From Longimicrobiales bacterium (GTDB taxonomy: Bacteria > Gemmatimonadota > Gemmatimonadetes > Longimicrobiales > Gaopeijiaceae), in assembly GCA_965203485.1 (NCBI GenBank), contig OZ241892.1, positions 1,888,001 through 1,952,000 of the forward strand: DNA of 64,000 bases. Reading direction: 5' to 3'. A program made the translations under genes and the position numbers. This document shows, piece by piece, positions 34,887-52,040 of this stretch; the stretch's first letter is position 1; each line of letters starts with the position of its first letter. The notes beneath the pieces are model-generated. The model did no database searches, was not told where the DNA came from, and saw nothing but the letters and a program-made list of their open reading frames with translations.

Positions 34887-35426
34887 GGGCATCGCGAAGG
34901 TCCGGCGAGGCGGATCGGGCGTCGGCGAGGCCGCGACGGAGCTTGCCAGCATTGCAGGCAGGCCTCTTGAAGGGATTCGCGGGGTCGGCCGACGATCGCC
35001 CTCGCCTTTCTGCACAATAGCCCTTGTCCGACGCCAAAGCCACCACCGTCGGAGCGACGGCGGCCAACTTCACGCCCCGAAAACAGGCGCACGCAAGCAA
35101 CGGTCCACCCTCTGTGCCCCGCCACGCCGTGCTCCGGACTGTTCCGGACTGTCTCGGCCCCTGAAGACCCAGTGCCCAAGCTTCCCCTTGCGAAGCGAGG
35201 CACGCTTGCGATGCAGGGGCGGCCAGCCTCGCCTCCCAGGGACGGCTTCGCACAGCGCCATTCAGCGGCGCGCTGGGAACGGCCCGTAGCTTGAGCATGT
35301 GTCCGGTAGTAGTTTCTGTTGGTCGCGCCTTCCCCGCCGGGAATGCGGCAAACGGGCGATTTCGCCCTTCTCCGATCAGCCCGCCGGGCCGCGACAGCGT
35401 TTTCAGCCATCGAATGGAGTCGGTGC

Positions 35427-38400
35427 ATGCGTATTTTCGACCGCGGCCCACTGGCGGCCGCATTGCTCGCGCTTTCCCCCTTTGCCGCGACGGCGCAGGA
35501 CGAGGACCTCGATCCCGACCGCGGCCTTCCCCTGGAGCCGACGCGCTGGGCCCGGTTCACCACGAGCGAAGGAACGTGGATCTCCCTCGACGTGAGCCCC
35601 GACGGCGGCACGATCGCCTTCGACCTCTTGGGCGACCTGTACACAATGCCCGCGGAGGGCGGCGATGCGACCCGCCTGACGAGCGGCCTGCCCCACGACA
35701 TGCAGCCGCGCTTCAGTCCGGACGGCGGCACGATCGCCTTCGTGTCCGACCGCAGCGGCGACAACAACGTCTGGCTGATCCCGGCGGACGGCGGCGAGCC
35801 GCGCCAACTGAGCAAGGGCGTGGGCAGTCGCTTTCTGTCGCCCGAATGGATGCCCGACGGCAAGTACGTGGTCGTGTCGCGCGCCGCGCCGCGCGCCGGA
35901 CTCGAGAAGCTGTGGCTGTACCACGTGGACGGCGGCACCGGCTTGGAGATGGTCGGAGGAGCCGGCGCCCAGCGCCTCCTGGGGCCCGCCGTGGGTCCGG
36001 AGGGACGCTACGTCTGGTACGCGCAACGCCGGGGCACCTGGAGCTACAACGCCATTTTCCCGCAGTACCAGCTCTGGATGTACGACCGCCGCACGGGCAC
36101 CCGGACGCCCGCCACGAGCCGCTACGGCTCCGCGTTCCGGCCGGCTGTCTCGCCCGACGGCAAGTTGCTCGCCTACGGCAGCCGCGAGGACGCCGACACG
36201 GGCATCCGCCTGCGCGACTTGGCGTCGGGGGACGAGCGCTGGCTCGCCTATCCCGTGCAACGCGACGACAAGGAGTCCACCGCCAACATGGACGTTCTCC
36301 CGGGCTACGCGTTCACGCCGGAGTCGGACGCGCTGGTCTTGTCGTACGGGGGGGGCATCTGGAGAGTCCCGGTGGACGGCGGCGAGCCGACCGAGATCCC
36401 CTTCACCGTCGAGGCCGAGGTGGCCGTCGGCCCGGAAGTGGAGTTCGAGTATCCCATCGAGGACACGCCGACGTTCACCGTCAAGCAGATCCGCAACGCC
36501 CGGCCCTCGCCGGACGGAAGCCGCATCGCGTTCGTGGCGCTCGACAGACTCTACGCGGCGACGTTGCCGGACGGAACGCCGGAGCGCCTCACGAGCGACG
36601 AGACGGGCGAGTTCGAGCCCGCGTGGTCGCCCGACGGCCGCTGGGTGGCCTACGTCACCTGGGACGACGACGCGGGCGAGGGGCACGTCCGGCGCGTCTC
36701 GGCGGACGGCGGACGGGCCGCGACGCTGACGACCGCGCCCGCCTACTACCGGCAACTGGCATGGTCGCCGGACGGCGAGCGGATCGTGGCCGCGCGCTCG
36801 GCGCGCCGCAACCTGGAAGAAGCGATCGAGCCGTTCGGGTACGACCTGGACCCGTACTTCGTGTGGATTCCGGCTTCGGGCGGCGCGGCGACCGTCATCG
36901 GTCCCACCGCCGGCCGCCGCAATCCGCACTTCACCACCGATTCCGACCGCATCTACTACTACGGCGCCGGGCGAGCGGCGCCGGTGCCGGGCTCGCCGGT
37001 CGCGCCCCCTCCCACGCTGGCGCTGAGCTCGGCTCGCTGGGACGACACCGACGCCAAGCTTCACTTGCGCGTCACGGCGCGCATCGACGTGGACGCGGGC
37101 AGCGTGGCGCCGGGCTACAAGCTCTCGCCGGAGTCCGGGCTCGTCATGCCGGAGGAGTTCGGCGACGAGCAGCCGCGCGAACTGGTGCCGCGGCGCTCGG
37201 CGGGCCTCGTGACGATGGCGCCCTCCGGCGACCAAGCGCTGGCCCAGGTGGGCGCCAACCTCTACGCGGTGACCGTGCCGGACCTGGGCGCGACGTTGCC
37301 GGTGGTGGACGTGTTCAAGCCGGACTCCGCCGCCGTGCCGGTGCGCAAGCTGAACGAACTCGGCGTGGAGTTCCCCGCTTGGGGAGCCGACGGACGAACG
37401 ATCCACTGGTCGCTTGGCAACGCGCTGTTCACCTACGACTTGGACGCGGCGGCCGACGACGCGGACTACGAGGCCGCCGAGCAACGGATACATGTCGAGG
37501 CGCCTCGCGACGTGCCCGAGGGCGTAGTGGTCCTGCGCGGCGCCACGGCGATCACCATGAACGGCGACGAAGTCGTGCGCAACGCCGACGTCGTGGTCGA
37601 GAACAACCGCATCCGGTCCGTCTCGGCAGGCCCGGGCGGCGTGCCCGAGGGAGCGAGCGTGATCGACGTGTCCGGCAAGACGATCGTGCCCGGCTTCGTG
37701 GACACCCACGCGCACATGTGGAATCTGTGGGGGCTGCACTGGGCCCGGCCTTGGATCTACTTGGCCAACTTGGCCTACGGCGTGACCACGACCCGCGACC
37801 CGCAGACGGCCACGACCGACGTGCTGTCGTACGAGGACATGGTGCGGGCCGGGAAGATCACCGGCCCGCGAGTCTACCACACCGGGCCGGGCGTGTTTTC
37901 CAGCGACGCGGTGCGGAGCTACGAGCACGCGCTCGACGTGCTTCGCAAGTACAGCGACTACTACGACACCAAGACGTTCAAGATGTACATGTCGGGCAAC
38001 AGGCGGCAACGACAGTGGCTGATCATGGCGGCGCGCGAGCTGGAGCTGATGCCCACCACCGAGGGCGGACTGGACTACCGGCTGAACATGACCCACGCCA
38101 TGGACGGCTATCCGGGCATCGAGCACTCGTTGCCCATCGTGCCGGCCTACCGCGACGTGGTGGAGCTCTTCGCCGAATCGGGGACCGTCAACTCGCCCAC
38201 GTTGCTTGTGACCTACGGCGGCCCTTGGGCGGAGAACTACTTCTACACGCGCGAGGACGTGTTCGGGGACGAGAAGCTGCTCCACTTCACGCCCAAGCGG
38301 GAACTCGACTTCAAGGCGCGGCGGTTGCAGACGACGGGGCCGGGGCCGGCCGGCTGGTTCATGGAAGAGGAGTACGCGATCGAGAAGCACTCGGGATGGT

Positions 38401-38801
38401 TGGTCGAACTCGTGGAAGGCGGCGGAAAGACGGGCGTGGGGAGCCACGGCCAGCTTCAGGGACTGGGATATCACTGGGAGCTGTGGGCGCTCCAGAGCGG
38501 CGGAATGGACGAGCACGACGCGCTTCGGGCCGCCACGATCATGGGCGCCGAGGCGATCGGGCTGGGCCGCGACCTGGGATCGCTGGAACCCGGCAAGCTC
38601 GCGGACCTCGTGATTCTGGACGCGAGTCCGCTGGACGACATCCGCAACACGAACGCGATCGACAGAGTGATGATGAACGGACGCTTGTACGACGGCGACA
38701 CGCTGGACGAGCTGTGGCCGCGGCGGAGACCGGCGCCGGCGGAGCCGTGGAGGAACACGGCCCCCGACGTGCGGGCCGGCATCAGGGGAGACGACCGATG
38801 A
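35427..38801 (+). CDS. Exported PD40/TolB-repeat plus amidohydrolase protein, copy 1
   Basis: Signal peptide; EGTWISLDVSPDG and many SPDG repeats; GKTIVPGFVDTHAH, IEH, GSHGQLQG and GSLEPGKLADLVIL motifs. Confidence 0.9.
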   Translation: MRIFDRGPLAAALLALSPFAATAQDEDLDPDRGLPLEPTRWARFTTSEGTWISLDVSPDGGTIAFDLLGDLYTMPAEGGDATRLTSGLPHDMQPRFSPDGGTIAFVSDRSGDNNVWLIPADGGEPRQLSKGVGSRFLSPEWMPDGKYVVVSRAAPRAGLEKLWLYHVDGGTGLEMVGGAGAQRLLGPAVGPEGRYVWYAQRRGTWSYNAIFPQYQLWMYDRRTGTRTPATSRYGSAFRPAVSPDGKLLAYGSREDADTGIRLRDLASGDERWLAYPVQRDDKESTANMDVLPGYAFTPESDALVLSYGGGIWRVPVDGGEPTEIPFTVEAEVAVGPEVEFEYPIEDTPTFTVKQIRNARPSPDGSRIAFVALDRLYAATLPDGTPERLTSDETGEFEPAWSPDGRWVAYVTWDDDAGEGHVRRVSADGGRAATLTTAPAYYRQLAWSPDGERIVAARSARRNLEEAIEPFGYDLDPYFVWIPASGGAATVIGPTAGRRNPHFTTDSDRIYYYGAGRAAPVPGSPVAPPPTLALSSARWDDTDAKLHLRVTARIDVDAGSVAPGYKLSPESGLVMPEEFGDEQPRELVPRRSAGLVTMAPSGDQALAQVGANLYAVTVPDLGATLPVVDVFKPDSAAVPVRKLNELGVEFPAWGADGRTIHWSLGNALFTYDLDAAADDADYEAAEQRIHVEAPRDVPEGVVVLRGATAITMNGDEVVRNADVVVENNRIRSVSAGPGGVPEGASVIDVSGKTIVPGFVDTHAHMWNLWGLHWARPWIYLANLAYGVTTTRDPQTATTDVLSYEDMVRAGKITGPRVYHTGPGVFSSDAVRSYEHALDVLRKYSDYYDTKTFKMYMSGNRRQRQWLIMAARELELMPTTEGGLDYRLNMTHAMDGYPGIEHSLPIVPAYRDVVELFAESGTVNSPTLLVTYGGPWAENYFYTREDVFGDEKLLHFTPKRELDFKARRLQTTGPGPAGWFMEEEYAIEKHSGWLVELVEGGGKTGVGSHGQLQGLGYHWELWALQSGGMDEHDALRAATIMGAEAIGLGRDLGSLEPGKLADLVILDASPLDDIRNTNAIDRVMMNGRLYDGDTLDELWPRRRPAPAEPWRNTAPDVRAGIRGDDR

Positions 38802-41800
38802 GCGGCGGCGAAGGGCGCGCATGGACACGGAAGGCCGCGGCGCTGGCCGTTCTGGCGGCCGCGTGCTGGCCGGCGGCCGGCGAGGCCCAGGGCCCGCGGC
38901 GAAGCGAGAATCCGCTGCCGTTGCGAGCGGACCGCACCGCCGAATTCACGGCCACCGAGGGCACGTGGATATCGCTGGACGTGAGCCCGGACGGACAGAC
39001 GATCGTGTTCGACCTGCTGGGCGATCTCTACACCGTGCCGGTCGGCGGCGGCGAAGCGTCGCCGCTGCTCGTCGGCATGGCGTACGAGACGCAGCCCCGG
39101 TTCAGCCCGGACGGCGAGACGGTCGCGTTCGTGTCGGACCGCAGCGGCGGCGACAACCTCTGGACGATGCGGCTGGACAAAACGGACACCACCCAGGTGT
39201 CGCGCGGGAACGGCAATCTGTTCCTCTCGCCCGAGTGGGCGCCCGACGGCGACTACATCGCGGTCAGCCGCTCGCCGGGACTGGGCGGCTCGGCCAAGCT
39301 GTTCCTGTACCACGCGGAGCGCGGCTCTCCGCTCGCCGTGGGCAACCACGCGGGCACGGTCAAGATGATCGGCGCGGCATTCAGCCCGGACGGCCGCCAC
39401 GTCTGGTACGCGCGCTCCTTCGGCGACTGGGAGTACAACGCGGTGCTGCCGCGCTACCAGCTGGCCCGCTACGACCGCGAGACCGGCACGACCACCACGG
39501 CCACGAACCGCTACGGTTCCGCCATGCGTCCCGCCGTGTCGCCCGACGGGCGCTGGCTCGTCTACGCGACCCGCTACGATGCCGACACGGGACTGCGCAA
39601 GCGCGACCTGGAGAGCGGCGACGAGGAGTGGCTGGCCTACCCCGTCCAACGCGACGAGCAGGAGTCGCGCGCGCCGCTCGACGTGATGCCCGGCTACGCC
39701 TTCCTGCCGGACGGATCGGCGATCGTGGTCTCGTACGGCGGCAAGATCTGGAACGTGCCGATGGACGGCAGCGACCCGGCTGAAGTCGCGTTCGAGGCGC
39801 CGGTCGAGCTGGCCGTCGGCCCGGAGGTCAAGTTCGGCTACCAGTTCGACACAACCGCCATGGTGACGGCCAGCCAGATTCGCAACCCCGTGGCGTCGCC
39901 CGACGGGAGCAGAGTCGCCTTCACGGCCTTCGACCGCGTATGGACCAAGAGCATGGACGACGCGGACGCCGAGGCGCAGCGGCTCACGGAAGCCGACGTG
40001 GGCGAGTTTCACCCGCAGTGGTCTCCGGACGGCCGGTGGATCGCCTATGCGACGTGGGACGACTCCGACGGCGGCCACCTCATGAAGGCGCCCGCGGGAG
40101 GCGGCGCTCCAGTGCGGCTCACGGCGGCGGCGGCGCTGTATTACAACGTGGCGTGGTCGCCGGGCGGCGACCGCATCGTCGCGTCGCGGGGAGCGGCCCG
40201 GCAGCTCAAGGAGGCGTCGGGGGCGTTCTTCGGCCCCTTGGGCGGCGAGTTCGTGTGGGTTCCGTCCGAGGGAGCGGCGCCTGTCGAAGCCACGTTGATT
40301 TCTCCGACGGGCTTGCGCGACGCGGCCCATTTCGTCCAGGACGATCCCGACCGCATCTACGCCTACAGCCCCGTCGAGGGCCTAGTCTCGTTTCGGTGGG
40401 ACGGCACGGACGTGGAACGCCATTTGGTCGTGCGCGGCCGCCAAGGCCTCGCCGGGATCGGCGATCCTCACGGCGACGCGTGGGAGTATCTGCCGCGACG
40501 CGTCTTCCCGTGGCGCAAGCGGCCCGCGGGCACGGGCACACCCGCCGACGGAGACGTGGACCCGCCGGCCGAGCCCGGCGGCATCGCGCCGGCCGGACTG
40601 ATCATGGCGTCGCCCCAGGGCGGCCGCGCCTTCGTGCAGATCGGGCGCGACGTCTACGTCGTCGAGTTGGCCGAACTGGGCGAGAGTCCGCCGACGGTCA
40701 ACCTGGTTAACCTGGGCGCGTCCCCATTGCCGGTGCGCAAGCTGACCGGCATCGGCGGCGAGTTCCCCTCGTGGGCGGCGGACGGCGGCTCGGTCCATTG
40801 GGCGATGGGCGCCGTGCTCTTCAGCTACGATCTGCAGGAAGTGGAGGCCGAGGAAGCCGAGGAAGAGGAGACGGCGCACGCCCGCGCGCTGTTGCGGGTG
40901 AGGGCCGCCGCCGTGTCCGACACGCTCGAGGACAAGCGGGCCGAGGCGGACAGCCTGGAGAAGGCGGGCGAAGACGTGCCCGAGGAGCTTGAAGACGAGA
41001 TCCGCAGGCTGGCGGCGGATTCCGTGCAGGTGGGGGCGGACTCGCTGGCGGCGCGCGCGGACTCGATCCGCATGGCGGCCGAAGAGCTGGCCGAGAAGGC
41101 CGCAGCGGTGAGGGACGGCGACGACGAGGCGCTTGCCGATTCGACCGAGACCTACGAGGCGCGCGAACGAAAGATCGAAGCCAAGATGCCGAGGGACGTG
41201 CCGCGAGGCACGATCGCGTTGCGCGGAGGGCGCGTCGTCACGATGGCCTCGCCTCCCGAGGGCGACTCCACCGGCGAACCGCATGTGATCGAGAACGGCG
41301 TCGTCGTGGTCGAAGACAACCGCATCGTCGCCGTCGGCCCGGCCGACTCCGTGGAGATCCCCGACAGCGCGCAGGTCGTCGACGTGTCCGGAAAGACGCT
41401 GGCGCCCGGCTACGTGGACACGCACTACCACGCGCAGTGGCTGGTGCCGGAGATCCACCCGGAGGAAGTCTGGCAGTACCTGTCCACGCTGTCCTACGGC
41501 GTGACGACCACGCGCGATCCGCAGACCGCGTCCACCGACATCTTGAGCTACGCCGACCGGGTGAACACCGGAGGCATGACGGGGCCGCGCATCTACTCCA
41601 CCGGCCCCGGCGTCTTCCTTGGCGAGAACATTCGCGACGCCGACCACGCCAAGTCGGTCCTGCGCCGGTACGCGCAGTACTTCGACACGAAGACGATCAA
41701 GATGTACATGACGGGCAACCGGCAGCAGCGGCAGTGGATCATTCAAGCCGCCCGCGAACTCGAGCTGATGCCCACCACCGAGGGCGGACTCGACTTCAAG

Positions 41801-42523
41801 ATCGACATGACGCACGCCATCGACGGGTACCCGGGCATCGAGCACAACCTCCCGATCACGCCGATCTACTCGGACGTGGTGGAGCTGTTCAAGGCGTCGG
41901 GCACGACCAACTCGCCCACGTTGCTCGTGTCCTACGGCGGGCCGTTCGGCGAAAACTGGTTCTACGCCACCGAAGACGTGCACGACGATCCGAAGTTGAA
42001 CGTCTTCGTGCCGCGCGAAAACATCGACGCCCGGACCCGGAGACGCGGACCCGGCGCTGGAGGAAGTCCGGGAGGAGCGGGCTGGTTCCTCGAGGAGGAG
42101 CACGTCTTCCCCCGTCACGCCGAGTTCGTCAAGCAAATGCTCGAGGACAGCGCGCGGGTGGCGGTCGGCAGCCACGGCCAGCTTCAGGGGCTCGGGTATC
42201 ACTGGGAGCTCTGGGCGATGGCGGCCGGGGGCGCGTCGAATCACGACATGCTGCGAGCCGCCACGATCCTCGGCGCGGAAGCGATCGGCTTCGGCGACCA
42301 GATCGGGAGCATCGAGAAGGACAAGTTCGCCGACATCGTGGTGCTCAACGGCAACCCGCTGGACGACCTGCGCAACTCCGCCGACATCCGCTACGTCATG
42401 AAGGACGGACGCCTCTACGACGGCGCGACTCTGGACGAAGTGTACCCGGAGCCCCGGACGCTGGAGCGGCAACGCCCCCCGGAAGCGCACGCGACCGAGG
42501 TTTCGAGCGGCATCCGCCGATAG
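38798..42523 (+). CDS. Exported PD40/TolB-repeat plus amidohydrolase protein, copy 2, with acidic insertion
   Basis: ATGA overlap with copy 1; same architecture (PGYVDTHYH, GSHGQLQG, GSIEKDKFADIVVL). Confidence 0.9.
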   Translation: MSGGEGRAWTRKAAALAVLAAACWPAAGEAQGPRRSENPLPLRADRTAEFTATEGTWISLDVSPDGQTIVFDLLGDLYTVPVGGGEASPLLVGMAYETQPRFSPDGETVAFVSDRSGGDNLWTMRLDKTDTTQVSRGNGNLFLSPEWAPDGDYIAVSRSPGLGGSAKLFLYHAERGSPLAVGNHAGTVKMIGAAFSPDGRHVWYARSFGDWEYNAVLPRYQLARYDRETGTTTTATNRYGSAMRPAVSPDGRWLVYATRYDADTGLRKRDLESGDEEWLAYPVQRDEQESRAPLDVMPGYAFLPDGSAIVVSYGGKIWNVPMDGSDPAEVAFEAPVELAVGPEVKFGYQFDTTAMVTASQIRNPVASPDGSRVAFTAFDRVWTKSMDDADAEAQRLTEADVGEFHPQWSPDGRWIAYATWDDSDGGHLMKAPAGGGAPVRLTAAAALYYNVAWSPGGDRIVASRGAARQLKEASGAFFGPLGGEFVWVPSEGAAPVEATLISPTGLRDAAHFVQDDPDRIYAYSPVEGLVSFRWDGTDVERHLVVRGRQGLAGIGDPHGDAWEYLPRRVFPWRKRPAGTGTPADGDVDPPAEPGGIAPAGLIMASPQGGRAFVQIGRDVYVVELAELGESPPTVNLVNLGASPLPVRKLTGIGGEFPSWAADGGSVHWAMGAVLFSYDLQEVEAEEAEEEETAHARALLRVRAAAVSDTLEDKRAEADSLEKAGEDVPEELEDEIRRLAADSVQVGADSLAARADSIRMAAEELAEKAAAVRDGDDEALADSTETYEARERKIEAKMPRDVPRGTIALRGGRVVTMASPPEGDSTGEPHVIENGVVVVEDNRIVAVGPADSVEIPDSAQVVDVSGKTLAPGYVDTHYHAQWLVPEIHPEEVWQYLSTLSYGVTTTRDPQTASTDILSYADRVNTGGMTGPRIYSTGPGVFLGENIRDADHAKSVLRRYAQYFDTKTIKMYMTGNRQQRQWIIQAARELELMPTTEGGLDFKIDMTHAIDGYPGIEHNLPITPIYSDVVELFKASGTTNSPTLLVSYGGPFGENWFYATEDVHDDPKLNVFVPRENIDARTRRRGPGAGGSPGGAGWFLEEEHVFPRHAEFVKQMLEDSARVAVGSHGQLQGLGYHWELWAMAAGGASNHDMLRAATILGAEAIGFGDQIGSIEKDKFADIVVLNGNPLDDLRNSADIRYVMKDGRLYDGATLDEVYPEPRTLERQRPPEAHATEVSSGIRR

Positions 42524-42572: not shown

Positions 42573-43409
42573 GTGAACCTGCCCCAACCGCAGCCCGGCG
42601 AGAACGGAGGAATGCGCGGCAAGCGCGCAACGGGCTATCCCGTCTCGGAAGAGGCGTTGCCGCCCCACGACATGAGGTCGGGGAGATACCGGCTCACCTT
42701 CGCGCGCTCCATGGAGCAGGTGCGAGCCCTGCAGCGGCTTCGCTTCGAGGTCTTCAACCTGGAGCTCGGGGAGGGGCTGAAGGAGTCGTTCGCGTCCGGG
42801 CTGGACGAGGACGACCTCGACGAGGCGCTGCACCACATCCTCATCATGGACGACCGCGCCGGGGAAGCCGTGGGCACCTACCGGATGCAGACAGCGGCGA
42901 TGGCGGCGGCGAACTGCGGCTTCTACTCGGCGCGCGAGTTCGACATTTCGGGGTTCCCGCTGTCGGTCGTGGACGACGCCGTGGAAGTGGGCCGGGCCTG
43001 CATCGCCAAGGACCATCGCAACCGAAGGGTCCTGCACTTGCTGTGGCGCGGCTTGGCGCGCTATTTGACATGGACGCGCAAGCACCACCTGTTCGGCTGC
43101 TGTTCGCTCAACACGCAGGACGGCCACGTGGGCAACCTCGTCCATGCGCGGTTGGTCGAGGAGGGACACCTTCACCCGACGGCGCTCGCCTGGCCCTTGC
43201 CGGGCTTCGAATGCGGACTTCACGGCCACCGCACCGACATGGCGGAGGACGCGACCAAGATCCCGCCGCTGTTCGCGAGCTACCTCAACCTGGGCGCCAA
43301 GATCTGCGGGCCGCCCGCAGTGGACCGAGAGTTCGGCACGATCGACTTCCTGGTCGTGCTGGACATCCGCGAACTCGAGACGCATGTCCGGCGCAGCTTC
43401 TTCCGTTAG
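42573..43409 (+). CDS. GNAT-family N-acyltransferase, OlsB-like (acyl-ACP:amino acid N-acyltransferase)
   Basis: LQRLRFEVFNLELGEGL, GLDEDDLD, VGTYRM, FYSAREFD, EVGRACI..DHR, LFGCCS, IPPLFASYLNLGAKICGPPA.DREFGTIDF motifs; start is 42573 (GTG) or 42612 (ATG). Confidence 0.9.
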   Translation: MNLPQPQPGENGGMRGKRATGYPVSEEALPPHDMRSGRYRLTFARSMEQVRALQRLRFEVFNLELGEGLKESFASGLDEDDLDEALHHILIMDDRAGEAVGTYRMQTAAMAAANCGFYSAREFDISGFPLSVVDDAVEVGRACIAKDHRNRRVLHLLWRGLARYLTWTRKHHLFGCCSLNTQDGHVGNLVHARLVEEGHLHPTALAWPLPGFECGLHGHRTDMAEDATKIPPLFASYLNLGAKICGPPAVDREFGTIDFLVVLDIRELETHVRRSFFR

Positions 43410-44163
43410 GGCCGCGCTTCGAGTTCCGGCGCTCTTCGCGTGGACCGCCTCGGCGGCCGCGGCGCTTGCGGCCGCATGGTTTCCGACGCTGGCGGCGCGC
43501 TCCGGCCCAGCGAGGCGAGCGCGCGTCCGCCGGGCAGTGCATCGCGCGTGGGGACGCGGCGCGCTGGCCATCCTCGGCGTGCGGGTCGAGCGGTCGGGCA
43601 CGCCTCCGCCCGCTGGCCACTTGGTGGTGTCGAACCACTTGAGCTACCTGGACATCATCGTGCTGGGCTCGCTGCTGCCGGTCGTCTTCGTCTCGAAGTC
43701 GGAGGTGCGGAACTGGCCGTTCGTGGGACTGGTCGCCACGATGGCCGGGACGATCTACATCGACCGGAGCCGCAAGCGCGACGCCCTGCGCGTGCTGGCG
43801 AAGATGCAGACGGCGCTCGACCGGGGCGACGCCGTGGTGATCTTCCCCGAGGCCACCAGCACGGACGGCGCCACGATCCTGCCGTTCCGCTCTTCCCTGC
43901 TCGCCGGCGCGGCCCGGGCCGGCACGCCCGTGCGGTGGCTCACGCTGTCCTACCGAACCCCGCCCGGCGCCCCTGCCGCCCGCGACCGCGTGTGCTGGTG
44001 GGGAGACGCCGGCTTCACGGGGCACTTCCTGAGGCTGTGCGGGCTTCCGCGCATTGCCTGCACCGTGCACTTCGGCGAGTCGGCCGTTCGCGCCGACGAC
44101 CGCAAGGCGCTGGGCATGCGTCTTCGCGACGCCATGATGCGGAAGTTCCAGCCCGTTGCCTGA
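43384..44163 (+). CDS. PlsC/OlsA-like lysophospholipid (lyso-aminolipid) O-acyltransferase
   Basis: SNHLSYLD (HX4D), FVSKSEVRNWP, YIDR and IFPEATS motifs; overlaps the 3' end of the GNAT gene. Confidence 0.92.
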   Translation: MSGAASSVRAALRVPALFAWTASAAAALAAAWFPTLAARSGPARRARVRRAVHRAWGRGALAILGVRVERSGTPPPAGHLVVSNHLSYLDIIVLGSLLPVVFVSKSEVRNWPFVGLVATMAGTIYIDRSRKRDALRVLAKMQTALDRGDAVVIFPEATSTDGATILPFRSSLLAGAARAGTPVRWLTLSYRTPPGAPAARDRVCWWGDAGFTGHFLRLCGLPRIACTVHFGESAVRADDRKALGMRLRDAMMRKFQPVA

Positions 44164-44689
44164 CGGCCCCGGCGGGCAGATCGCATCGAATCTGGCCCTG
44201 CTCGACCAGGCGGAGGCCGCGATCGAGAGGCTGGCCGACGGCTTGGCCGCGCCCTCGGCGATCGGGCGGGCGACGGCGGGCGCTCACTTCCGCCACGTCT
44301 TCGACCATTACCGGTGCCTTCTCGTCGGTCTAGCGTCCGGCCGAGTCGACTACCACGAACGCCAGCGCGACCAAGGCGTCGAGTCCGATCCGGAGCGCGC
44401 GCTCGAGGCGTGCCGGGCTTGCCGCGAAGCGCTGTTGCGGGACGCGCCGAGCCGCCTGGACGACGCGATCCGGGTCCGCACCGGCGCCGATCCCGCGCGG
44501 AAGGACTGGGCAACCACCAGCGTCAGGCGGGAACTCGCGTTCTGCGCGAGCCACACGCTGCATCATCTTGCCATCGTCACGATGATCGCCCGCGAGAGAG
44601 GCGTGGACCTCGACGAGACGCTGGGGGTGGCGCCCTCCACGGCCGCGCATCGCAACGCAAGACCGGTCGCCGCGGCAACGGACCGCTGA
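44156..44689 (+). CDS. DinB-family protein
   Basis: GAHFRHVFDHY, VDYHERQRD and RELAFCASHTLHHLA His-rich four-helix-bundle motifs. Confidence 0.85.
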   Translation: MPDGPGGQIASNLALLDQAEAAIERLADGLAAPSAIGRATAGAHFRHVFDHYRCLLVGLASGRVDYHERQRDQGVESDPERALEACRACREALLRDAPSRLDDAIRVRTGADPARKDWATTSVRRELAFCASHTLHHLAIVTMIARERGVDLDETLGVAPSTAAHRNARPVAAATDR

Positions 44690-44690
44690 C

Positions 44691-45485
44691 TTGTGCACCA
44701 TCAGCTGGCTTCCCGCACCGGACGGCTACCGGGTGTGGATGAACCGAGACGAAGCGCGCACGCGGCCGCGGGCTCGGGCGCCGCGCGTCTTGCGGCTGCC
44801 CGCCGGCCCGGCCGTGGCGCCGCGCGACCCTCGCGGAGGCGGGTCCTGGATCGGGACGACCGCGGCGGGCATGACGCTGGCCCTGGCCAACGCCTATCCC
44901 GCGCCCGCGCCGCCCGCCCCGAAGGCGCCGGTGTCGCGGGGCCTCCTGCTGATGGAGGCGCTGGAGCGCGCGGGCGGCGCGGCGGTTCGGCGCTGGATGG
45001 GCGCGAAGGACCTCTCGCCTTACCCGCCCTTTAGCATCTCCGTCTTCGAGCCGGGTGCGCCAGCCGCGACCCTGGGCTGGGACGGCCGCCGGGTGTCGGA
45101 GAGGCGGACGGACGAAGCCGGCCTCGTCGCGACTTCGTCTTCTTGGCGCCCGGCCGAGGTGGCCCGGACGCGGGCGGCCGTCTTCAGGATGTGGGCGCAG
45201 GAGCACGGAGGGTTCTCCTCGGCCGCGCTGGACCGCCTGCACGCGAGCCGCGAGCCCGCGCCCGGCCCGCACGCCGTGTCGATGGAGCGGCGCGACGCGT
45301 GCACGGCCAGCTTGAGCGTCGTCGAGGTTTCCGCGTCGACCGTCCGGTTCTGGTACGTGGACGGGCCGCCGCACTGCACCGCGGCCGGGCCGCCGGGCTC
45401 GCTGCCGCGAAGGAGGGCCGCCGCAGACGGGCCGACGGCAACCATGCGAGCCAGCCGCCGCCCGGTCCTGGTCGGCCGTCGATAG
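44691..45485 (+). CDS. NRDE/TANGO2-family protein (Ntn-hydrolase-like fold)
   Basis: Starts MCT; NRDE motif; PRDPRGGGSWIG, SRGLL and YPPF; TTG start 1 nt after the DinB stop. Confidence 0.88.
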   Translation: MCTISWLPAPDGYRVWMNRDEARTRPRARAPRVLRLPAGPAVAPRDPRGGGSWIGTTAAGMTLALANAYPAPAPPAPKAPVSRGLLLMEALERAGGAAVRRWMGAKDLSPYPPFSISVFEPGAPAATLGWDGRRVSERRTDEAGLVATSSSWRPAEVARTRAAVFRMWAQEHGGFSSAALDRLHASREPAPGPHAVSMERRDACTASLSVVEVSASTVRFWYVDGPPHCTAAGPPGSLPRRRAAADGPTATMRASRRPVLVGRR

Positions 45486-45512
45486 CGCTCTCGGACGAAG
45501 CGCGCCAAGCCG

Positions 45513-48284
45513 ATGCGCAAGGACGGCGACGGGCACGCCGTGGCCCCGCCAAGCCGACGCCCCGCGACCGGCGCGCGAAGGCGCGCCAAGCGCTGCCTTC
45601 TGCTGGGCTACCTCGTGCTCTTGGGCGCGTCCCACGTCGTCCGCTGGCCCTCCGCCGAGCCCCAGCCGCGCCCAGACCAGCGGGTGCGGCAAGTGGAAGG
45701 GCATCCGGCCACCGGCTTGCCCGTCGACATCGCCTACCGGCAGTGGGCGCCGCCGGACTCGGCTTCGGCGGCAGGACGCCCGATTCTGCTCGTTCACGGC
45801 AGTCCCGGCTCGGGATCCGCCTTCGCGGCGCTGGGTCCGCTCCTCGGCGAGCGGCGGCGAACGCTGGCGCCGGACCTGCCCGGGTTCGGCGCGTCCACGC
45901 GGAGCGTGCCCGACTACTCGATCCGCGCGCACGCGGCCGTCGTCCTCCAATGGCTCGACTCGCTCGACGTCGGCCAAGTCCACGCCGTCGGCTTTTCCCT
46001 GGGCGGCGGCGTGGCCCTCGAGATGCACCGGGCCGATCCCGCGCGCATCGCCTCGCTCACGCTGCTCTCGGCCACCGCGGCCCAGGAGTTCGAGCTGCTC
46101 GGCGACTACTACCTCAACCACGCCGTGCACGGCCTCCAGCTCGCGGCCCTCTGGTCCCTTCGCGAGCTGCTGCCGCACTTCGGCGTCCTGGACGGCGGCT
46201 TCCTCACGCACGCCTACGCCCGCAACTTCTACGACACCGACCAGCGCCCGTTGCGCGACATCCTGTCCGGCTACCCCGGTCCCGTCCTCGTCGTCCACGG
46301 CGAACACGATCCGCTGGTTCCCGCCGAGGCCGCGCGCGAGCACCACCGCATCGCGCCTCAGTCCGAGCTGGTCATGTTGTTCGACGCGGATCACTTCATG
46401 GCCTTCCGGTCCCCCCGCCGCGTAGGACCTCCGATCCTGGACTTCGTCGACCGGGCCGAGGCCGGCGCTGCCGTCGCGCGGGCCGCGGCCGACCCCGAGC
46501 GCGTCCGCGCCGCCGAGGCGCCGATCGGTCCCCTGCCCGCCGTGTCGGGCTTGGCGCTGGCCACCACGCTTCTGCTGATCGCGCTGGCGACGTTCGTGTC
46601 CGAGGACTTGGCGTGCATCGGCGCGGGCCTGCTGGTGGCACGAGGTTCCCTGCCCTGGTTGCCCGGTGTCGGCGCGTGCTTCGTCGGCATCTTCCTGGGC
46701 GACCTGCTCCTGTACGCGGCGGGACGCCTCGCAGGCTCGACGGTCGTGAAGGCCGCGCCGCTCAAGTGGTTCGTGCACCCGGAAGACCTGGTGCGGTCGG
46801 GCCGCTGGTTCACCGAACGGGGGTCCGCGCTCGTGATGTGGGGGCGCTTCGTGCCGGGCACGCGGTTGCCGACGTACGTGGGCGCGGGCGTGCTGCGCGT
46901 CTCCTTGGCGCGATTCGCTTTGTGGGCGCTCGTCGCCGCCGCGCTGTGGACTCCGTTGCTCGTGGGCGCTTCCACCCTCTTCGGGACCGCCTCGGCCACT
47001 TGGTTCCAGGAGTTCCGCGAGAGGGCGTTCCCCTGGCTGGCGGTGACCGCCGTGGCAGCGCTGCTCGCGTTCCGGACGGTGGCGGCCCTCTCGAGCAAGG
47101 CGTCGCGCGCTCGTCTCGCCGCCCGCTGGGACCGCCTGCGCCGGTGGGAGTTCTGGCCCGCATGGGCGTTCTACGCGCCGCTGGCCGCTTGGGTGGCGTG
47201 GCTGATGCTTCGCCACCGGTCGCCGACGCTGTTCACCGCCGCCAATCCCGGGTTTCCGCACGGCGGACTGGTCGGCGAGTCCAAAGCCCAGATCCTGGCG
47301 TCGTTCGCCGCGCAGGAGCGCGTGGCCGAGACGTGGTTGCTGGACCCCCGCGACGGAACGCCCGCGCGTCTAGTGGCTGGAACCCCCGCGGCCGAAGCGG
47401 GGCGCACGGCGGCCACACCCCGTCTGGACGGGTTGGGCCAGCACATGGGTCTTCCCGCTGGCGAAGGTGCGAGCGCAACGCGGGCCGGCCCGGCGGACTC
47501 CGGCGAGGCGAGCGAACGCGCGGCGGACGGACCATGGACGTTCCCCTTGGTGGTCAAACCGGACGTGGGAGAGCGCGGCGCGGGCGTCTCCGTGGTGCGG
47601 AGCCAAGCCGAACTCGAACGCGACTTGGCGTCCAGGCGCTCGCGCGTCCTGCTGCAAGCGTACGTGCCGGGCGATGAACTCGGCATCTTCTACTACCGCA
47701 TGCCCGGCGAGACGCGCGGCCACGTCTTCGGGATCACCGAGAAGCGCCTTCCGGCCGTGACCGGCGACGGGCGCAGCGCCGTAGGCGATCTCATCTGCCG
47801 CGACCCCCGCCTCCGCTGCCAGGAGCGCACCCTTCGCCGCGGCCTGGGCGAGAGGGCGAACTACGTCCCCGCCGCAGGGGAGACCGTCGCGGTGGGCCAA
47901 CTGGGCAACCACTGCTTGGGTTGCGAGTTCCTCGACGGCGCTCGCCTGGGCACGCCCGCTCTCGCGGCCGCCGTCGACCAAGTCAGCCGCGGCGTGCCCG
48001 GCTTCCACATCGGACGCTACGACGTCCGAGGCGACCTGGACGACATGCGCGCCGGCCGCTTCCGCGTCATTGAACTCAACGGCGTATCGTCCGACGCCAC
48101 CAACGTGTACGACCCCCGCAACTCGCTGCGCACCGCCTACCGCACGCTGTCGCGCCAGTGGGCGATCGCCTTCCGCATCGCCGCCGCCAACCGCCGCCGG
48201 GGCCATCCGCCCTCCGGTCTCCTCGCCGTGCTCGCCTCCCTGGCCCGCCACTTCCGCCCGTCCGGCGCGAGGTGGGCGCCGTGA
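45513..48284 (+). CDS. Fusion: TM anchor, alpha/beta hydrolase, DedA/VTT membrane domain, ATP-grasp ligase
   Basis: Hydrolase: LVHGSPG, PDLPGFG, GFSLGG, HGEHDPLVP, DADH. DedA: TFVSEDL, GDLLLYAAGR, GRFVPGTR. ATP-grasp: VVKPDVGERGAGV, LLQAYV, VTGDG, GRYDVR, IELNG. Confidence 0.88.
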   Translation: MRKDGDGHAVAPPSRRPATGARRRAKRCLLLGYLVLLGASHVVRWPSAEPQPRPDQRVRQVEGHPATGLPVDIAYRQWAPPDSASAAGRPILLVHGSPGSGSAFAALGPLLGERRRTLAPDLPGFGASTRSVPDYSIRAHAAVVLQWLDSLDVGQVHAVGFSLGGGVALEMHRADPARIASLTLLSATAAQEFELLGDYYLNHAVHGLQLAALWSLRELLPHFGVLDGGFLTHAYARNFYDTDQRPLRDILSGYPGPVLVVHGEHDPLVPAEAAREHHRIAPQSELVMLFDADHFMAFRSPRRVGPPILDFVDRAEAGAAVARAAADPERVRAAEAPIGPLPAVSGLALATTLLLIALATFVSEDLACIGAGLLVARGSLPWLPGVGACFVGIFLGDLLLYAAGRLAGSTVVKAAPLKWFVHPEDLVRSGRWFTERGSALVMWGRFVPGTRLPTYVGAGVLRVSLARFALWALVAAALWTPLLVGASTLFGTASATWFQEFRERAFPWLAVTAVAALLAFRTVAALSSKASRARLAARWDRLRRWEFWPAWAFYAPLAAWVAWLMLRHRSPTLFTAANPGFPHGGLVGESKAQILASFAAQERVAETWLLDPRDGTPARLVAGTPAAEAGRTAATPRLDGLGQHMGLPAGEGASATRAGPADSGEASERAADGPWTFPLVVKPDVGERGAGVSVVRSQAELERDLASRRSRVLLQAYVPGDELGIFYYRMPGETRGHVFGITEKRLPAVTGDGRSAVGDLICRDPRLRCQERTLRRGLGERANYVPAAGETVAVGQLGNHCLGCEFLDGARLGTPALAAAVDQVSRGVPGFHIGRYDVRGDLDDMRAGRFRVIELNGVSSDATNVYDPRNSLRTAYRTLSRQWAIAFRIAAANRRRGHPPSGLLAVLASLARHFRPSGARWAP

Positions 48285-48590: not shown

Positions 48591-49724
48591 ATGAAGTACG
48601 CGAAGCTGAGCATTCTCGCGGCCGCCGTGCTGGCGGCGGCCTGCGACGAGGCCGCGCGCCCCGTCGCTCCGTACGACCCGGCCGAGCCCACGCTGGCGGA
48701 CGCCGACCTCCCCGAGCTGGCCTAGGCCGTCTCGAAGGGGCTGGCCGAGCCCGCCGCCCGCCGGAGCATCCTGGCGGCGATGCGCGCGTCGCGCGCCGTC
48801 GAGCACCGGCTGATCCTGGCCGACTACCTGCGCAGCCCCGAGGGCGCCGGCTTGCTGGCCGGAGCCTCGCAGGCGTTCGGCGGCGGCGGCGGCGAGTTGC
48901 TGGCGCGCGTGGACAGGCTCCGGCAGGTGGCTGAAGTGGTCATCGCCGTTCCTCTGCGCGAGCACCGGCTCAACTGGCGTGGCTCCGCCGACGTCGGCGT
49001 CGCTGGCGCGTGGGACTCGGACGCGCTGGGATTCGTCGTGCACGAGCCCGGCGGCGGCAAGCGGAAGGCCGGGACGGTGGAGGCGCTCGAGGGCTACGAC
49101 GCCTTCTTCCTGATCCGGCCGCAGGAGAGCTGGGGCACGCGGATCGGCCGCCAGCCGGAGGGTCCGGGCCCGGTGATTCAGGACCCTGGCGACGGCGAGC
49201 ACGCGGTCGTGTGGACCTACGAGGAGGAGGGCAAGCCGCCGGTGTCGGTGGACTACGGGCTGTACGACTCGGACGAAGCGCTGGAAGCGGCCATCGCGAC
49301 GGCCGCGGGCTTGCCTATGGTGGCGGCTTGCGATGGCCGAGCGGGCGGTTGCACGGGGGGTGGTGGCGGCAGGACTGATTCCCTGCCGGGCACGTACCTG
49401 AAGAGGCTTCAGTTGCTCGTCCCTGGCGACAACGTCGGAACTGCTGAGGTCGAGGTCACGGTCGGCTACCGTATCCCACGGGGATCCCATGTTCGCGGAA
49501 CAGTCCGCAAGACGGGGATAAGGATGGGGAGGATATACGAGTTCAACCAGTTCGTCCTCACCGATATTCCACGTCCCGGTGGGCTATTGTTCTATGCGAG
49601 AGCAGTGGAAACCGATCCTTGGTGGGCCGGCGGCGACGACGACCTCGGTTACGCTCGCTTCGGTCATGCAGAGGGAGGGGTCGACCTGCACCTCCGCAAG
49701 ATCAACATCTCGCTCAGCTGGTAG
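48591..49724 (+). pseudogene. Hypothetical lipoprotein interrupted by an in-frame TAG at 48723-48725
   Basis: AAGGAG RBS; MKYAKLSILAAAVLAAAC lipobox; the frame continues through the TAG (ELA*AVSKGLAEPAARRSILAAMR) into track ORF 48780..49724. Confidence 0.75.
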
Positions 49725-49735
49725 GAGGCGGAGCA

Positions 49736-52040
49736 ATGTTGCGTGCCGTGCGGATCCCGTTGGTCGTTGCCGCGGCGTTCGGCCTGTGGCCGGCCACCGG
49801 CGCGGAAGCGCGCGGCGCCCAGGTTCCCGGTTCGGGGGCCTGGGCGGTTCGCGCGGTCGACGACCGGTCCGGCAATCCGGTGCCGGGCGTGGTGCTCTTC
49901 TTTCCGGCCCTGTCGGCGAGCCGGCTCACCAACGACGGCGGGCTGGCGGAGTTGCCGGCGGCGGGCGATTCGCTCCGCGTCGTCGCGACCCGAATCGGGT
50001 ACGCCGAGCTGGACACGCTGTTGAGCTTGTCGGGGCGGGGCGCGGTCGTCGAGTTCCGGCTGGCGCGCGCGCCGGTCTCGCTGCAGCCGCTGACGGTCGA
50101 GGCGGACCGCCGCCTCACGTCGCGCGAGCTTCACCGCCTGCTGTTCGACCGCGAGGTCTCGATCGGCGCGTTCAGCATGACGCAGGCCGAGATCGAGGCG
50201 GTGCCGCCGATCGGGGAGCCGGACGTGTTCCGCAGCCTTGCAGGCGTTCGCCGGCGTGTCGAGCCTCAACGACTACAGCGGCCAGCTGTTCGTGAGGGGC
50301 GGAGCCGGCGACCAGACGCGGGTGCTGCTCGACGGCGCGCCCGTGTTCGCGCCCTATCACATGTTCGGGCTGTTCGGCGTGTTCAACTCGGGCGCGATCG
50401 AGGCGACCGAGTTCTACCGGGGCTCGATTCCCGCGCGCTACTGCGGAGCGTTGTCGGGCGTCGTGTCGGCGCGCAGCAGGACCGGCAACGCGCGGGGGAC
50501 CAGCGCGAGCGGCGGCGTCAGCTTTCTAGGCGCGCGCGTCGCGGCGAGCGGCGCGGCGCCGTGGGGAGGCGTCCGGTGGATGGCGGCGGGGCGCAAGGCG
50601 TCGGTCGACGTCGCGCGGGTCTCGATCCCGTATTCGTTCGAGGACCTGAACCTGGGACTCGAGGCGCATCCGGCGGAGCGGCACCGGCTGCGCGTCTCGC
50701 TGATGGCGTCGGGCGACGAGTTCGCTTGGCGGTTCGGGGACGACGCCAAGAGTTCTCTGCGCTCGGCGTGGGAGAACCTGGCGTCGTCGCTGTCGTGGTC
50801 GTGGGTTCGCGACGACCGGCTGGCCAGCGGCGTGACGGCGTACTACAGCCGGTACAGGGGCGACATCGGGGTCGACGACACCGGCGGCTCCGGGCCGGCC
50901 ACGGAGAATCGCGTCGCGGTGGCGGGACTGCGTGCCAACGTGACGCTGCGGGGCGAGACGGCCGGCTTGAGGGCGGGCGTCGCGTTCGAGGCGGGCCCGG
51001 TGGACCTTCGCGGCTTCCGTCCGGGCGCGTACATGGAAGGCGACGCTTCGCGGTCCTACCTGCACCTGTCGGCGTTCGCCGAGGCGGAGCGCTCGCTGGG
51101 CCCGGTGCGGCTGGCGCCGGGCGTGCGCGTGGGCGCGGAGCGGCGGGCGTCGCGGCGGTTCGTCGAGCCGCGCTTCTCGGTCCGCTGGCGCGCGGACGCG
51201 TTCGCGCTCAGCCTCAGCCTCGACCGCACGTACCAGTTCATGTCGCAGCTCGCGGACGCTCGCTTCGATCCGCCGGGCGCGCCCATGTGGTTCGTGCATC
51301 CGGGCGAGCATCCGGCGTCCTTGGCCGACGGCCTGAGCGTCTCGGCCGACGCTTGGCGCGGCGACGCCTGGACGGCGGCGGCGGCCGCGTGGACCCGGCG
51401 CTTCCGCAACAAGCCGTACTGGCGGCCCGGCCAGCCGAGAGACCTGGCGGCGCTCGAGTTCCACGACGGGACCGGACACGGCATCGAAGTCACGGTGCGC
51501 AGGCACTCGGGCCGGGTTCGGGGTTGGCTGTCGTACCAGTGGGCGCGCGTCGCGTTCCAGGACGGCGACGGCGCCGAGTACTTCCCCGCGTGGGACCGCC
51601 GGCACGAACTCGACGGCACCGTCACGACCCGCGTCGCGGGCCAACTCGACGTGTCCGTCAGGGCAACCGTGGGAACAGGCGCGCCGTTCTGGTTCCCGGC
51701 CGGCTTCCTCAGCCTGGTCCGGTACGACCCGAACCAGCGGTCGGTCTTCGGCCGCACCTTCTTCGAGCGACTTGTCACGGACCAAGCGGGCACCGTGACG
51801 TTTTGGTCGTCCGTCCAGGGCCGTGTTCCGCTGTACGCTCGCTACGACATATCCTTGCGGTACGCGTTGCGCTGGGGCTCCTGGGAAGTGATCCCCTACG
51901 CGTCGGTCGTCAATGTCGCCAACCGCGTTAACGTGCTTCGGTACTATGGCCACACGCGATCGCGGACGGGAGAAGACACGTTGCTCTCGGAACGTCAACT
52001 TCCAGTGGTCCCTTTCCTGGGGATCGACTTCCGCTTCTAA
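49736..52040 (+). pseudogene. TonB-dependent receptor with an apparent +1 frameshift at ~50238
   Basis: Signal peptide and N-domain to VPPIGEPDVFRSL, continuing in the next frame as QAFAGVS...LFVRGGAGDQTRVLLDG...IPARY.GALSGV; ends FLGIDFRF. Confidence 0.8.

Follow-up and report, generated by a model that had tools for sequence, protein, structure and literature searches.

A large proportion of bacteria produce aminolipids, and a locus of a Longimicrobiales bacterium raises the question of whether the OlsB/OlsA route to these lipids continues beyond the acyloxyacyl product. The locus lies in a window of 64,000 nucleotides (contig OZ241892.1 of assembly GCA_965203485.1, positions 1,888,001 to 1,952,000), which is the whole stretch of DNA that we analysed and to which the coordinates below refer. 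At 42573..48284, five intact open reading frames follow one another on the + strand with junctions of -26, -8, +1 and +27 nucleotides, exactly as described in an earlier note on this DNA. They encode an OlsB-type GNAT, an OlsA/PlsC-type acyltransferase, a DinB protein, an NRDE/TANGO2-family protein and a hydrolase-DedA-ATP-grasp fusion. We conclude that this is a real, widespread and undescribed extension of a known lipid pathway, the most likely inference being that the ATP-grasp ligase extends the lipid at its carboxylate with an amino acid. From the tight spacing we infer that the five genes are co-transcribed; a scan of the operon for promoter-like and terminator-like sites found none beyond chance. 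The GC content at third codon positions is 0.85-0.91 for each of the five genes, each is present in a single copy in its own genome (tblastn), and the nearest named relatives are in Longimicrobiales (Gemmatimonadota) genomes, with 75-77% identity. Contigs from two public runs showed zero mismatches or indels over the stretch; they are possibly the assembly's own source, so this is a check of the sequence only.

The domain calls of the earlier note were confirmed by Pfam, profile and fold matches and by invariant residues, Pfam cut-offs being passed by four of the five protein calls and by two of the three domains of the fusion. The first gene (42573..43409, +, 278 residues, GTG start, with an alternative ATG start possible near 42612) encodes the GNAT N-acyltransferase (Acetyltransf_5, PF13444, E 7.6e-27) and overlaps the next gene by 26 nucleotides. 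This second gene (43384..44163, +, 259 residues, ATG start) encodes the O-acyltransferase (PF01553, E 2e-22), in which the HX4D motif residues H85 and D90, together with E156, are invariant in 14/14 aligned sequences. A PF13444 GNAT followed by a PlsC-type acyltransferase, co-oriented and overlapping, is the arrangement of the OlsB/OlsA pathway, whose relatives include OlsF, GluB/OlsA and GlsB/GlsA; however, the scores obtained here are about one third to one half of the equivalog cut-offs and three more genes follow. Indeed, the GNAT reaches 116.7 bits with the OlsB model NF052554 (cut-off 350) and 114.7 with NF052555 (cut-off 320), and the acyltransferase 131 and 141 bits with the OlsA models NF052552 and NF052553 (cut-off 300), which nevertheless outscore the generic PlsC models on this protein. 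A search of PDB sequences with the GNAT gave nothing usable and no solved relative. With scores so far below the cut-offs, ornithine is not established as the amino acid used by the GNAT. The OlsF-type fusions that replace the two enzymes in other phyla also score below threshold (365-432 bits against 620).

The fifth gene (45513..48284, +, 923 residues, ATG start) encodes three domains in one chain. The first part (45513..46487, +) comprises an N-terminal membrane anchor at about residues 25-43 and an alpha/beta-hydrolase (Abhydrolase_1, PF00561, E 2.3e-29), with a triad S162/D266/H294 that is invariant in 19-21 aligned rows; its nearest solved sequences are esterases and non-haem haloperoxidases. 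The second part (46530..47105, +) is a DedA/VTT membrane domain (PF09335, E 1.4e-14), with acids E364 and D365 at the first re-entrant tip in 42/42 sequences and arginines R445 and R451 at the second tip in 43/43. An acidic first tip and an R-x5-R second tip make up the COG0586 pattern described in a survey of DedA subfamilies (bioRxiv 10.1101/2023.01.04.522824), and the assignment rests on this pattern of tip residues, the UptA equivalog models giving 50.4 and 29 bits against cut-offs of 250 and 300. In the hydropathy profile of the fusion, nine basic residues precede a weak anchor (25-43), the DedA region has five hydrophobic segments and the ligase follows a basic stretch; on this basis of hydropathy and charge the hydrolase is predicted to be periplasmic and the ligase cytoplasmic. 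The N-terminal hydrophobic segment is present in 37/44 full-length relatives. Elsewhere in the same genome, a second DedA domain (G000:C1:1321240-1321596, -) lies within an open frame of 836 codons, possibly another fusion.

The third part (47118..48284, +) is an ATP-grasp ligase of an unnamed family close to CphA, GshF and RimK; a WEFWP motif and a hydrophobic helix stand ahead of it. Pfam detected no ATP-grasp match in this domain of the window's protein, and a PDB sequence search with a stand-alone ligase returned nothing usable. With a family profile of 44 sequences, however, the best match in the PDB was cyanophycin synthetase 2 (CphA2, E 4e-10), followed by CphA1 and GshF. A structural model (predicted local distance difference test, pLDDT, 85.3) also matched CphA2 (E 1.7e-10), CphA1 and GshF by Foldseek, and its structural alignment gave LysX/ArgX at Z 16.2 (root-mean-square deviation 3.4, 220 residues aligned) and CphA2 at Z 14.6, with VanA and RimK in the range of Z 14-16. 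Residues K682, E722, R835, D837, E854 and N856 (domain number plus 535, to give the numbering of the full fusion protein) are invariant in 44/44 relatives; we take the K, E, R-x-D and E-x-N set to bind ATP and metal, following the numbering of D-Ala-D-Ala ligase and an alignment to CphA2. The likeness to the CphA2/CphA1 G domain, GshF and LysX/ArgX/RimK lies in the ATP-grasp fold, the CphA/GshF-type lid insertion and these catalytic residues. The ligase differs from them by an identity of about 20% or less, by the lack of a CphA M domain or a GshA part, and by its own WEFWP motif, hydrophobic helix and fusion to membrane domains. It also contains a disordered, low-complexity insertion of about 50 residues (approximately 47376-47528, pLDDT <50); L002 has a shorter version, and the other relatives shown in the alignment lack it.

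Two names for this ligase were rejected. Many relatives are automatically named D-alanine-D-alanine ligase, but NF002378 matched 3/44 members with a best E of 0.0028; cyanophycin synthetase and GshF models gave 20-23 bits against cut-offs of 850-877, over about 85 residues. The family is large and, at E<=1e-30, counts 1,805 clusters of representatives at 50% identity. The WE[F/Y]W motif is found in 118/120 proteins, and stand-alone ligases retain the hydrophobic helix after it (mean peak hydropathy 1.50 over 118 proteins), which points to a membrane-located substrate even without DedA. Since the nearest solved relatives are amide-forming ligases that activate peptide or amino-acid carboxylates, we favour amide ligation to a carboxylate.

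Is this ligase tied to aminolipid synthesis? Among 301 Gemmatimonadota genomes, the ligase is found in 34 and the GNAT in 47, and all 34 ligase carriers possess the GNAT, within 6 kb on the same contig in 30 of them and split over contigs in the other 4. The 13 genomes with the GNAT only comprise one operon cut by a contig end, nine members of a single genus and three weak matches. In that genus (three loci fetched, L111-L113) OlsB and OlsA stand alone, and its long branch falls within the operon clade, which fits synthases that act on their own and a fusion that depends on what they make. The genus is also a natural drop-out of the downstream genes, usable for a comparison of lipids. Among 400 sampled Pseudomonadota, nine genomes carry the ligase and seven of these have an OlsF synthase nearby: six show a co-oriented series DedA-ligase-DinB-NRDE-YHS-(DoxX)-OlsF, and in one OlsF directly precedes a DedA::ligase fusion. 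This one-way dependence, together with the independent OlsF arrangement, ties the ligase to aminolipid synthases.

A search by gene neighbourhood, proposed in the earlier note as a test of co-occurrence, showed that the parts recur together in several phyla. The 80 loci retrieved via the fusion protein contain DinB (58), NRDE (53), DedA (42), hydrolase (20), GNAT (16) and acyltransferase (14), and belong to Gemmatimonadota, Acidobacteriota, Planctomycetota, Verrucomicrobiota, Bacteroidota, Pseudomonadota and three smaller groups. In Bacteroidota, 59 of 251 genomes carry the ligase, 32 of them in frames of >780 codons. We fetched 20 of these 59 loci and observed OlsB and OlsA co-oriented with the fusion in 11/11 triple fusions, nine of which share flanking synteny and represent one lineage. 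A supposed lack of synthase enrichment in Bacteroidota, where the GlsB model matched 13/59 carriers with about 14 expected, was set aside, as this model misses the OlsB-type genes found beside the triple fusions. We then considered 128 ligase loci in total, 87 of them well flanked (5.5 kb or more on the upstream side and 3 kb or more on the downstream side) and 41 set aside. A synthase adjoins 23/25 triple fusions, 8/14 DedA fusions, 8/10 ligases with DedA in a separate frame and 2/38 loci scored as DedA-less. Two of the latter (L141 and L152) are DedA fusions by Pfam or annotation, so that a synthase stands beside 40/51 DedA-bearing ligases versus 1/36 without DedA. The functional tie between the fusion and the aminolipid synthases that the earlier note had proposed is thus supported. 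The link between ligase and synthases is not due to chance, and hitch-hiking alone is hard to reconcile with two synthase architectures, several gene orders and several phyla.

Several observations weigh against an aminolipid substrate. Two of the nine Pseudomonadota carriers are without a nearby synthase, and so are the Azospirillum, Komagataeibacter, Paracoccus and Salinivibrio plasmid loci. None of the nine fetched Bacteroidota stand-alone ligases adjoins a synthase, nor do 35 of the 36 DedA-less ligases overall. Seven synthase neighbours in the DedA-fused group sit on the opposite strand, and related genomes and loci are not independent. Among 23 Bacteroidota genomes with the stand-alone form, five have a PF13444 match and all 23 have GH3/OlsH-type genes; the latter are common in Bacteroidota generally and so give weak support as an alternative synthase. 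Of 50 carrier genomes whose ligase locus has no synthase, 23 have a PF13444 match elsewhere, 30 a GH3/OlsH-type match and three no match to either. Such absences are to be read with care: the NRDE gene of the window itself escaped one genome-wide search by family, so that a failure to find a gene in this way is only weak evidence that it is missing. Redox neighbours (DoxX in 33, YHS in 32 and a ferric-reductase-Rieske fusion in 17 of the 87 loci) are not explained by aminolipid extension. The distribution does not follow the carboxyl-extended lipids already described: the ligase occurs in 1/14 genomes with GlsB above its cut-off and in 7/81 Chitinophaga genomes, versus lipid 430 in 23/25 strains (PMC8433624), strains and genomes being different sets.

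The stand-alone ligases that have LysE exporters (15/38) and no adjacent synthase would be explained by a salvage or repair function, as would the occurrence of two hydrolases within a biosynthetic operon. In such a scheme the esterase and NRDE would degrade aminolipids, DedA would import the lyso form and the ligase would remake the N-acyl bond by joining a free fatty acid directly to an amino acid. The outcome would be an ordinary aminolipid or N-acyl amino acid and not an extended lipid. An ATP-grasp enzyme has been reported to join fatty acids to histidine (PMC11631085), and OlsI, an alpha/beta-hydrolase, is the O-acyltransferase of a third ornithine-lipid route (PMC12493201). However, the histidine-acylating enzyme is assigned to PF13535 (PMC11631085), which is matched by none of the ligase-family members scanned; the enzymes closest in structure use the carboxylate of a peptide or amino acid as acceptor of the ligation; and a ligase forming N-acyl bonds would not need OlsB, which all 34 Gemmatimonadota carriers nevertheless possess. 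We therefore consider salvage unlikely.

The earlier note had treated the five genes as a single pathway. A core of OlsB, OlsA and the fusion stands, but DinB and NRDE are missing from many loci and a stand-alone DinB-NRDE-ligase form exists, so that the operon is not a fixed five-gene unit. All five genes with the triple fusion are found in 10/128 loci, nine from Gemmatimonadota and one from Bacteroidota in another order; one Planctomycetota locus has the window's gene order minus the hydrolase. In the 25 well-flanked triple-fusion loci, DinB and NRDE are both absent from 6 and NRDE alone from 11. NRDE is accompanied by DinB in 51/52 loci, and DinB occurs without NRDE in 16. Fusions vary too: NRDE is joined to the ligase in nine Bacteroidota loci, and NRDE-hydrolase-DedA-ligase forms a single chain in two among the top 150 representatives. 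In the ligase tree, which comes from a quick version of the search, the stand-alone clade keeps DinB, NRDE, YHS, DoxX and often LysE, with no adjacent synthase.

The persistence of this stand-alone form across Bacteroidota led us to consider two co-regulated and chemically separate modules, with DinB, NRDE and the ligase producing or handling some soluble amide, either a small peptide or a thiol, during envelope or redox stress and the synthases merely sharing regulation. Extracytoplasmic function (ECF) sigma factors in 14/87 loci fit such a scheme, as do the DoxX, YHS-selenoprotein-type or ferric-reductase-Rieske genes seen in many, and the OlsF gene of several Acidobacteriota and Planctomycetota loci is convergent instead of co-oriented. 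On the other hand, DedA and a membrane-anchored esterase share one chain with the ligase, whose hydrophobic helix persists even where it stands alone, the minimal set retained is OlsB, OlsA and the fusion without DinB, NRDE or redox genes, and two synthase architectures have been recruited in different gene orders. This arrangement in separate modules appears quite improbable to us.

What could DinB and NRDE contribute? The DinB gene (44156..44689, +, 177 residues, TTG start) encodes a DinB/YfiT-fold four-helix bundle (DinB_2, PF12867, E 1.6e-7) with a three-histidine site; H47, H133 and H137, together with arginines R46, R69, R71 and R125, are invariant in 59/59 sequences. Its model (pLDDT 92.8) has B. 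subtilis YjoA (3dka, template modelling score 0.63) as its top fold match. The best fold matches are uncharacterised DinB proteins, the thiol transferases BstA and MST appearing only at E 0.13-0.24, and a profile search of PDB sequences gave nothing usable. The NRDE gene (44691..45485, +, 264 residues, TTG start) encodes a TANGO2-family protein (PF05742, E 2e-6) with a cysteine immediately after the start codon; Cys2, R19, D20 and E21 are present in 53/53 sequences and N18 in 49/53. Its family profile matches human TANGO2 (E 3.5e-6) over the N-terminal half only (TANGO2 residues 19-127, short of Asn157 and Lys166). The position of the Cys2 nucleophile and the NRDE motif are shared with human TANGO2 and with cysteine N-terminal nucleophile (Ntn) hydrolases such as bile-salt hydrolase, NAAA and acid ceramidase, and we predict that NRDE is a cysteine Ntn amidase or transacylase. 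A crystal study of TANGO2 proposed a cysteine Ntn hydrolase acting on fatty-acid derivatives (PMC13044924), and the TANGO2 family has been associated with acyl-CoA binding (PMC11867700). The subfamily of the operon is nevertheless distant from human TANGO2 and is tied to DinB and the ligase, and the substrates of TANGO2 itself, fatty-acid amides, are proposed only (PMC13044924).

We also considered that the amine joined to the aminolipid by the ligase might be cysteine or a different sulfur-bearing amine. The product would be a thiol buffer anchored in the membrane and built by a tRNA-independent machine that makes, flips and trims its lipid. DinB would then conjugate electrophiles and NRDE cleave the conjugates, while DoxX, YHS and the ferric-reductase-Rieske proteins would keep the thiol reduced. 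DoxX and thiol transferases have roles in thiol buffering, the near ATP-grasp relatives of the ligase include GshF glutathione synthetases, and the DinB fold includes bacillithiol and mycothiol S-transferases. Redox neighbours occur in 43/67 DinB-bearing loci versus 5/20 without DinB, and the YHS partners pass the YHS (seleno)protein model. Yet thiol transferases rank low among the DinB fold matches, the window's operon is without a redox gene, DinB and NRDE are dispensable, and no such lipid is named in the accessible parts of two reviews (PMC12971839, PMC11631085). Both the thiol-bearing lipid and the roles that it would give to the accessory proteins seem very unlikely. If true, this would be a lipid counterpart of glutathione and mycothiol, and it would provide the first natural substrate for a TANGO2-family enzyme.

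Heme trafficking has been reported for a Shewanella homologue of TANGO2 (PMC10470608), and the DedA tips fit the COG0586 pattern described for undecaprenyl-phosphate flippases. The DedA-ligase might accordingly act on an undecaprenyl-linked or other phosphate-bearing envelope precursor, with NRDE as a heme chaperone for a neighbouring cytochrome b-type protein and the aminolipid link incidental. However, the UptA models stay at 50 and 29 bits against 250 and 300, and PetA, a phosphatidylethanolamine transporter, clusters with UptA too (PMC10193950). We found no recurring cell-wall or glycosyltransferase genes in the loci examined, the TANGO2-heme contacts in the crystal study looked non-specific (PMC13044924), and NRDE tracks DinB, not a cytochrome. 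An envelope precursor of this kind is thus extremely improbable.

Returning to an extended aminolipid, which product could be made? For the known modifications of ornithine lipids (hydroxylation, N-methylation, taurine transfer), no DedA- or ATP-grasp-type gene is named in the available text of a review (PMC12971839). The closest chemistry is that of cerilipin, a taurine-ornithine lipid of Gluconobacter cerinus made by ATP-dependent transfer to the carboxyl of ornithine lipid, an activity without an assigned gene (PMC12971839); such ATP-dependent amide formation on an aminolipid carboxyl is what we propose for the ligase. The copies seen in Acetobacteraceae are nevertheless those of Komagataeibacter plasmids, with no ols gene nearby. 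Carboxyl-extended Gly-Ser and Gly-Ser-Orn lipids are known (PMC8433624), but the distribution given above led us to reject the ligase as the missing flavolipin (Gly-Ser) or Gly-Ser-Orn synthase, and the product is probably not a known lipid of these types.

The combination of head-group modification inside the cell with flipping by one membrane protein has parallels in MprF-type synthase-flippase fusions and in DedA proteins of lipid operons such as PetA. MprF unites synthase and flippase, is aminoacyl-tRNA-based and acts on phosphatidylglycerol; the protein described here would differ by its ATP-grasp chemistry and by an aminolipid substrate. DedA-MprF and DedA-phospholipase fusions have been described, and DedA genes in lipid operons or fusions move those lipids (PMC10193950). 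Other fusions, but no ATP-grasp or hydrolase fusion, are named in the main text of the DedA survey (bioRxiv 10.1101/2023.01.04.522824) and in the accessible part of the PetA paper (PMC10193950). A full-text literature search, with most subscription papers outside its coverage, found no description of this system, in agreement with the earlier note, which knew of no characterised pathway with this gene set.

We propose that the operon builds an acyloxyacyl amino-acid lipid to whose carboxylate the ligase adds an amine, that DedA flips the product and that the hydrolases trim or recycle it; taken as a whole, this scheme has in our view an even chance of being right. The genes, folds, motifs and linkage were observed, and the substrates and the order of the steps below are deduced from them. 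By analogy with their families, the GNAT would N-acylate an amino acid and the PlsC-type enzyme would add an ester-linked chain. The ligase, which DedA and its own hydrophobic helix would keep on the inner side of the membrane, would phosphorylate the head-group carboxylate with ATP and form an amide with an amine or amino acid, as its fold and catalytic residues suggest. DedA, whose two arginines would suit an anionic head group, may then move the lipid across the membrane, and the serine hydrolase, if periplasmic as predicted, could use its triad to remove or exchange the ester-linked chain. NRDE, as a putative cysteine Ntn amidase, may cleave the lipid amide for turnover, and DinB, as a putative metal enzyme, may supply or process a small-molecule partner. 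Co-occurrence suggests that both are dispensable accessories and that NRDE depends on DinB. The patchy distribution, with ECF and redox neighbours, suggests a conditional modification in envelope stress.

Upstream of the operon, a tandem pair of PD40/amidohydrolase genes (35319-38801 and 38798-42523, +) ends 49 nucleotides before the GNAT; it is present upstream in L001 and L002 and not in four more distant loci (L117-L119, L124), and was rejected as a component in favour of lineage-specific neighbours. Downstream, the gene at 48591-49724 (+) looks broken, with an in-frame TAG at 48723-48725, and so does a TonB-plug gene (49724-52040, +), with a frame change near 50240. In many relatives the operon is directly preceded by genes for a ferric-reductase-Rieske fusion and its membrane partner (L064:3631-4407; L125:6023-6814); the partner carries a Cys/His motif and had no Pfam or NCBIfam match. 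In the window's own genome, this pair is about 1 Mb away (G000:C1:873868-875637).

Other forms of the ligase were also seen. A long-branch Bacteroidota subclade (L073:5977-9058; L077:5950-9367, the latter locus with two tandem ligase copies) is accompanied by YqcI/YcgG and DUF1989 instead of DinB and NRDE, and possibly has a different substrate. The ligase is carried by six Komagataeibacter plasmids, and on one (L142:4079-7011) the stand-alone gene diverges from genes for a methyltransferase and a heme-oxygenase-like iron redox enzyme, with an arsenic-resistance operon in the vicinity. The ligase is also present in a Gracilibacteria genome of about 1 Mb (L062:746-1693, with stops under translation table 11), where no PF13444 or GH3 match was found. 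Cultured carriers include Paludibaculum fermentans (OlsF nearby), Salinivibrio kushneri (DedA, ligase, DinB and NRDE), Chitinophaga filiformis DSM 527 (an NRDE-ligase fusion without an adjacent synthase) and Azospirillum lipoferum. The GNAT in G229 (C4:3570193-3571009) and the ligase in G231 (C5:142378-143430) match in two pieces, which suggests frameshifts or assembly errors.

In the accessible portions of two reviews (PMC12971839, PMC11631085), no gene is given for the extension of the carboxyl head group and no passage deals with the flipping or degradation of aminolipids. The locus provides candidate genes for these three processes, in a family of about 1,800 clusters that includes cultured strains. 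It also gives a defined lipid setting to a relative of TANGO2, the deficiency of which is a disease in humans. There is dispute over whether TANGO2 acts as a lipid amidase or as a heme chaperone (PMC13044924, PMC10470608), and a bacterial substrate would make the question testable.

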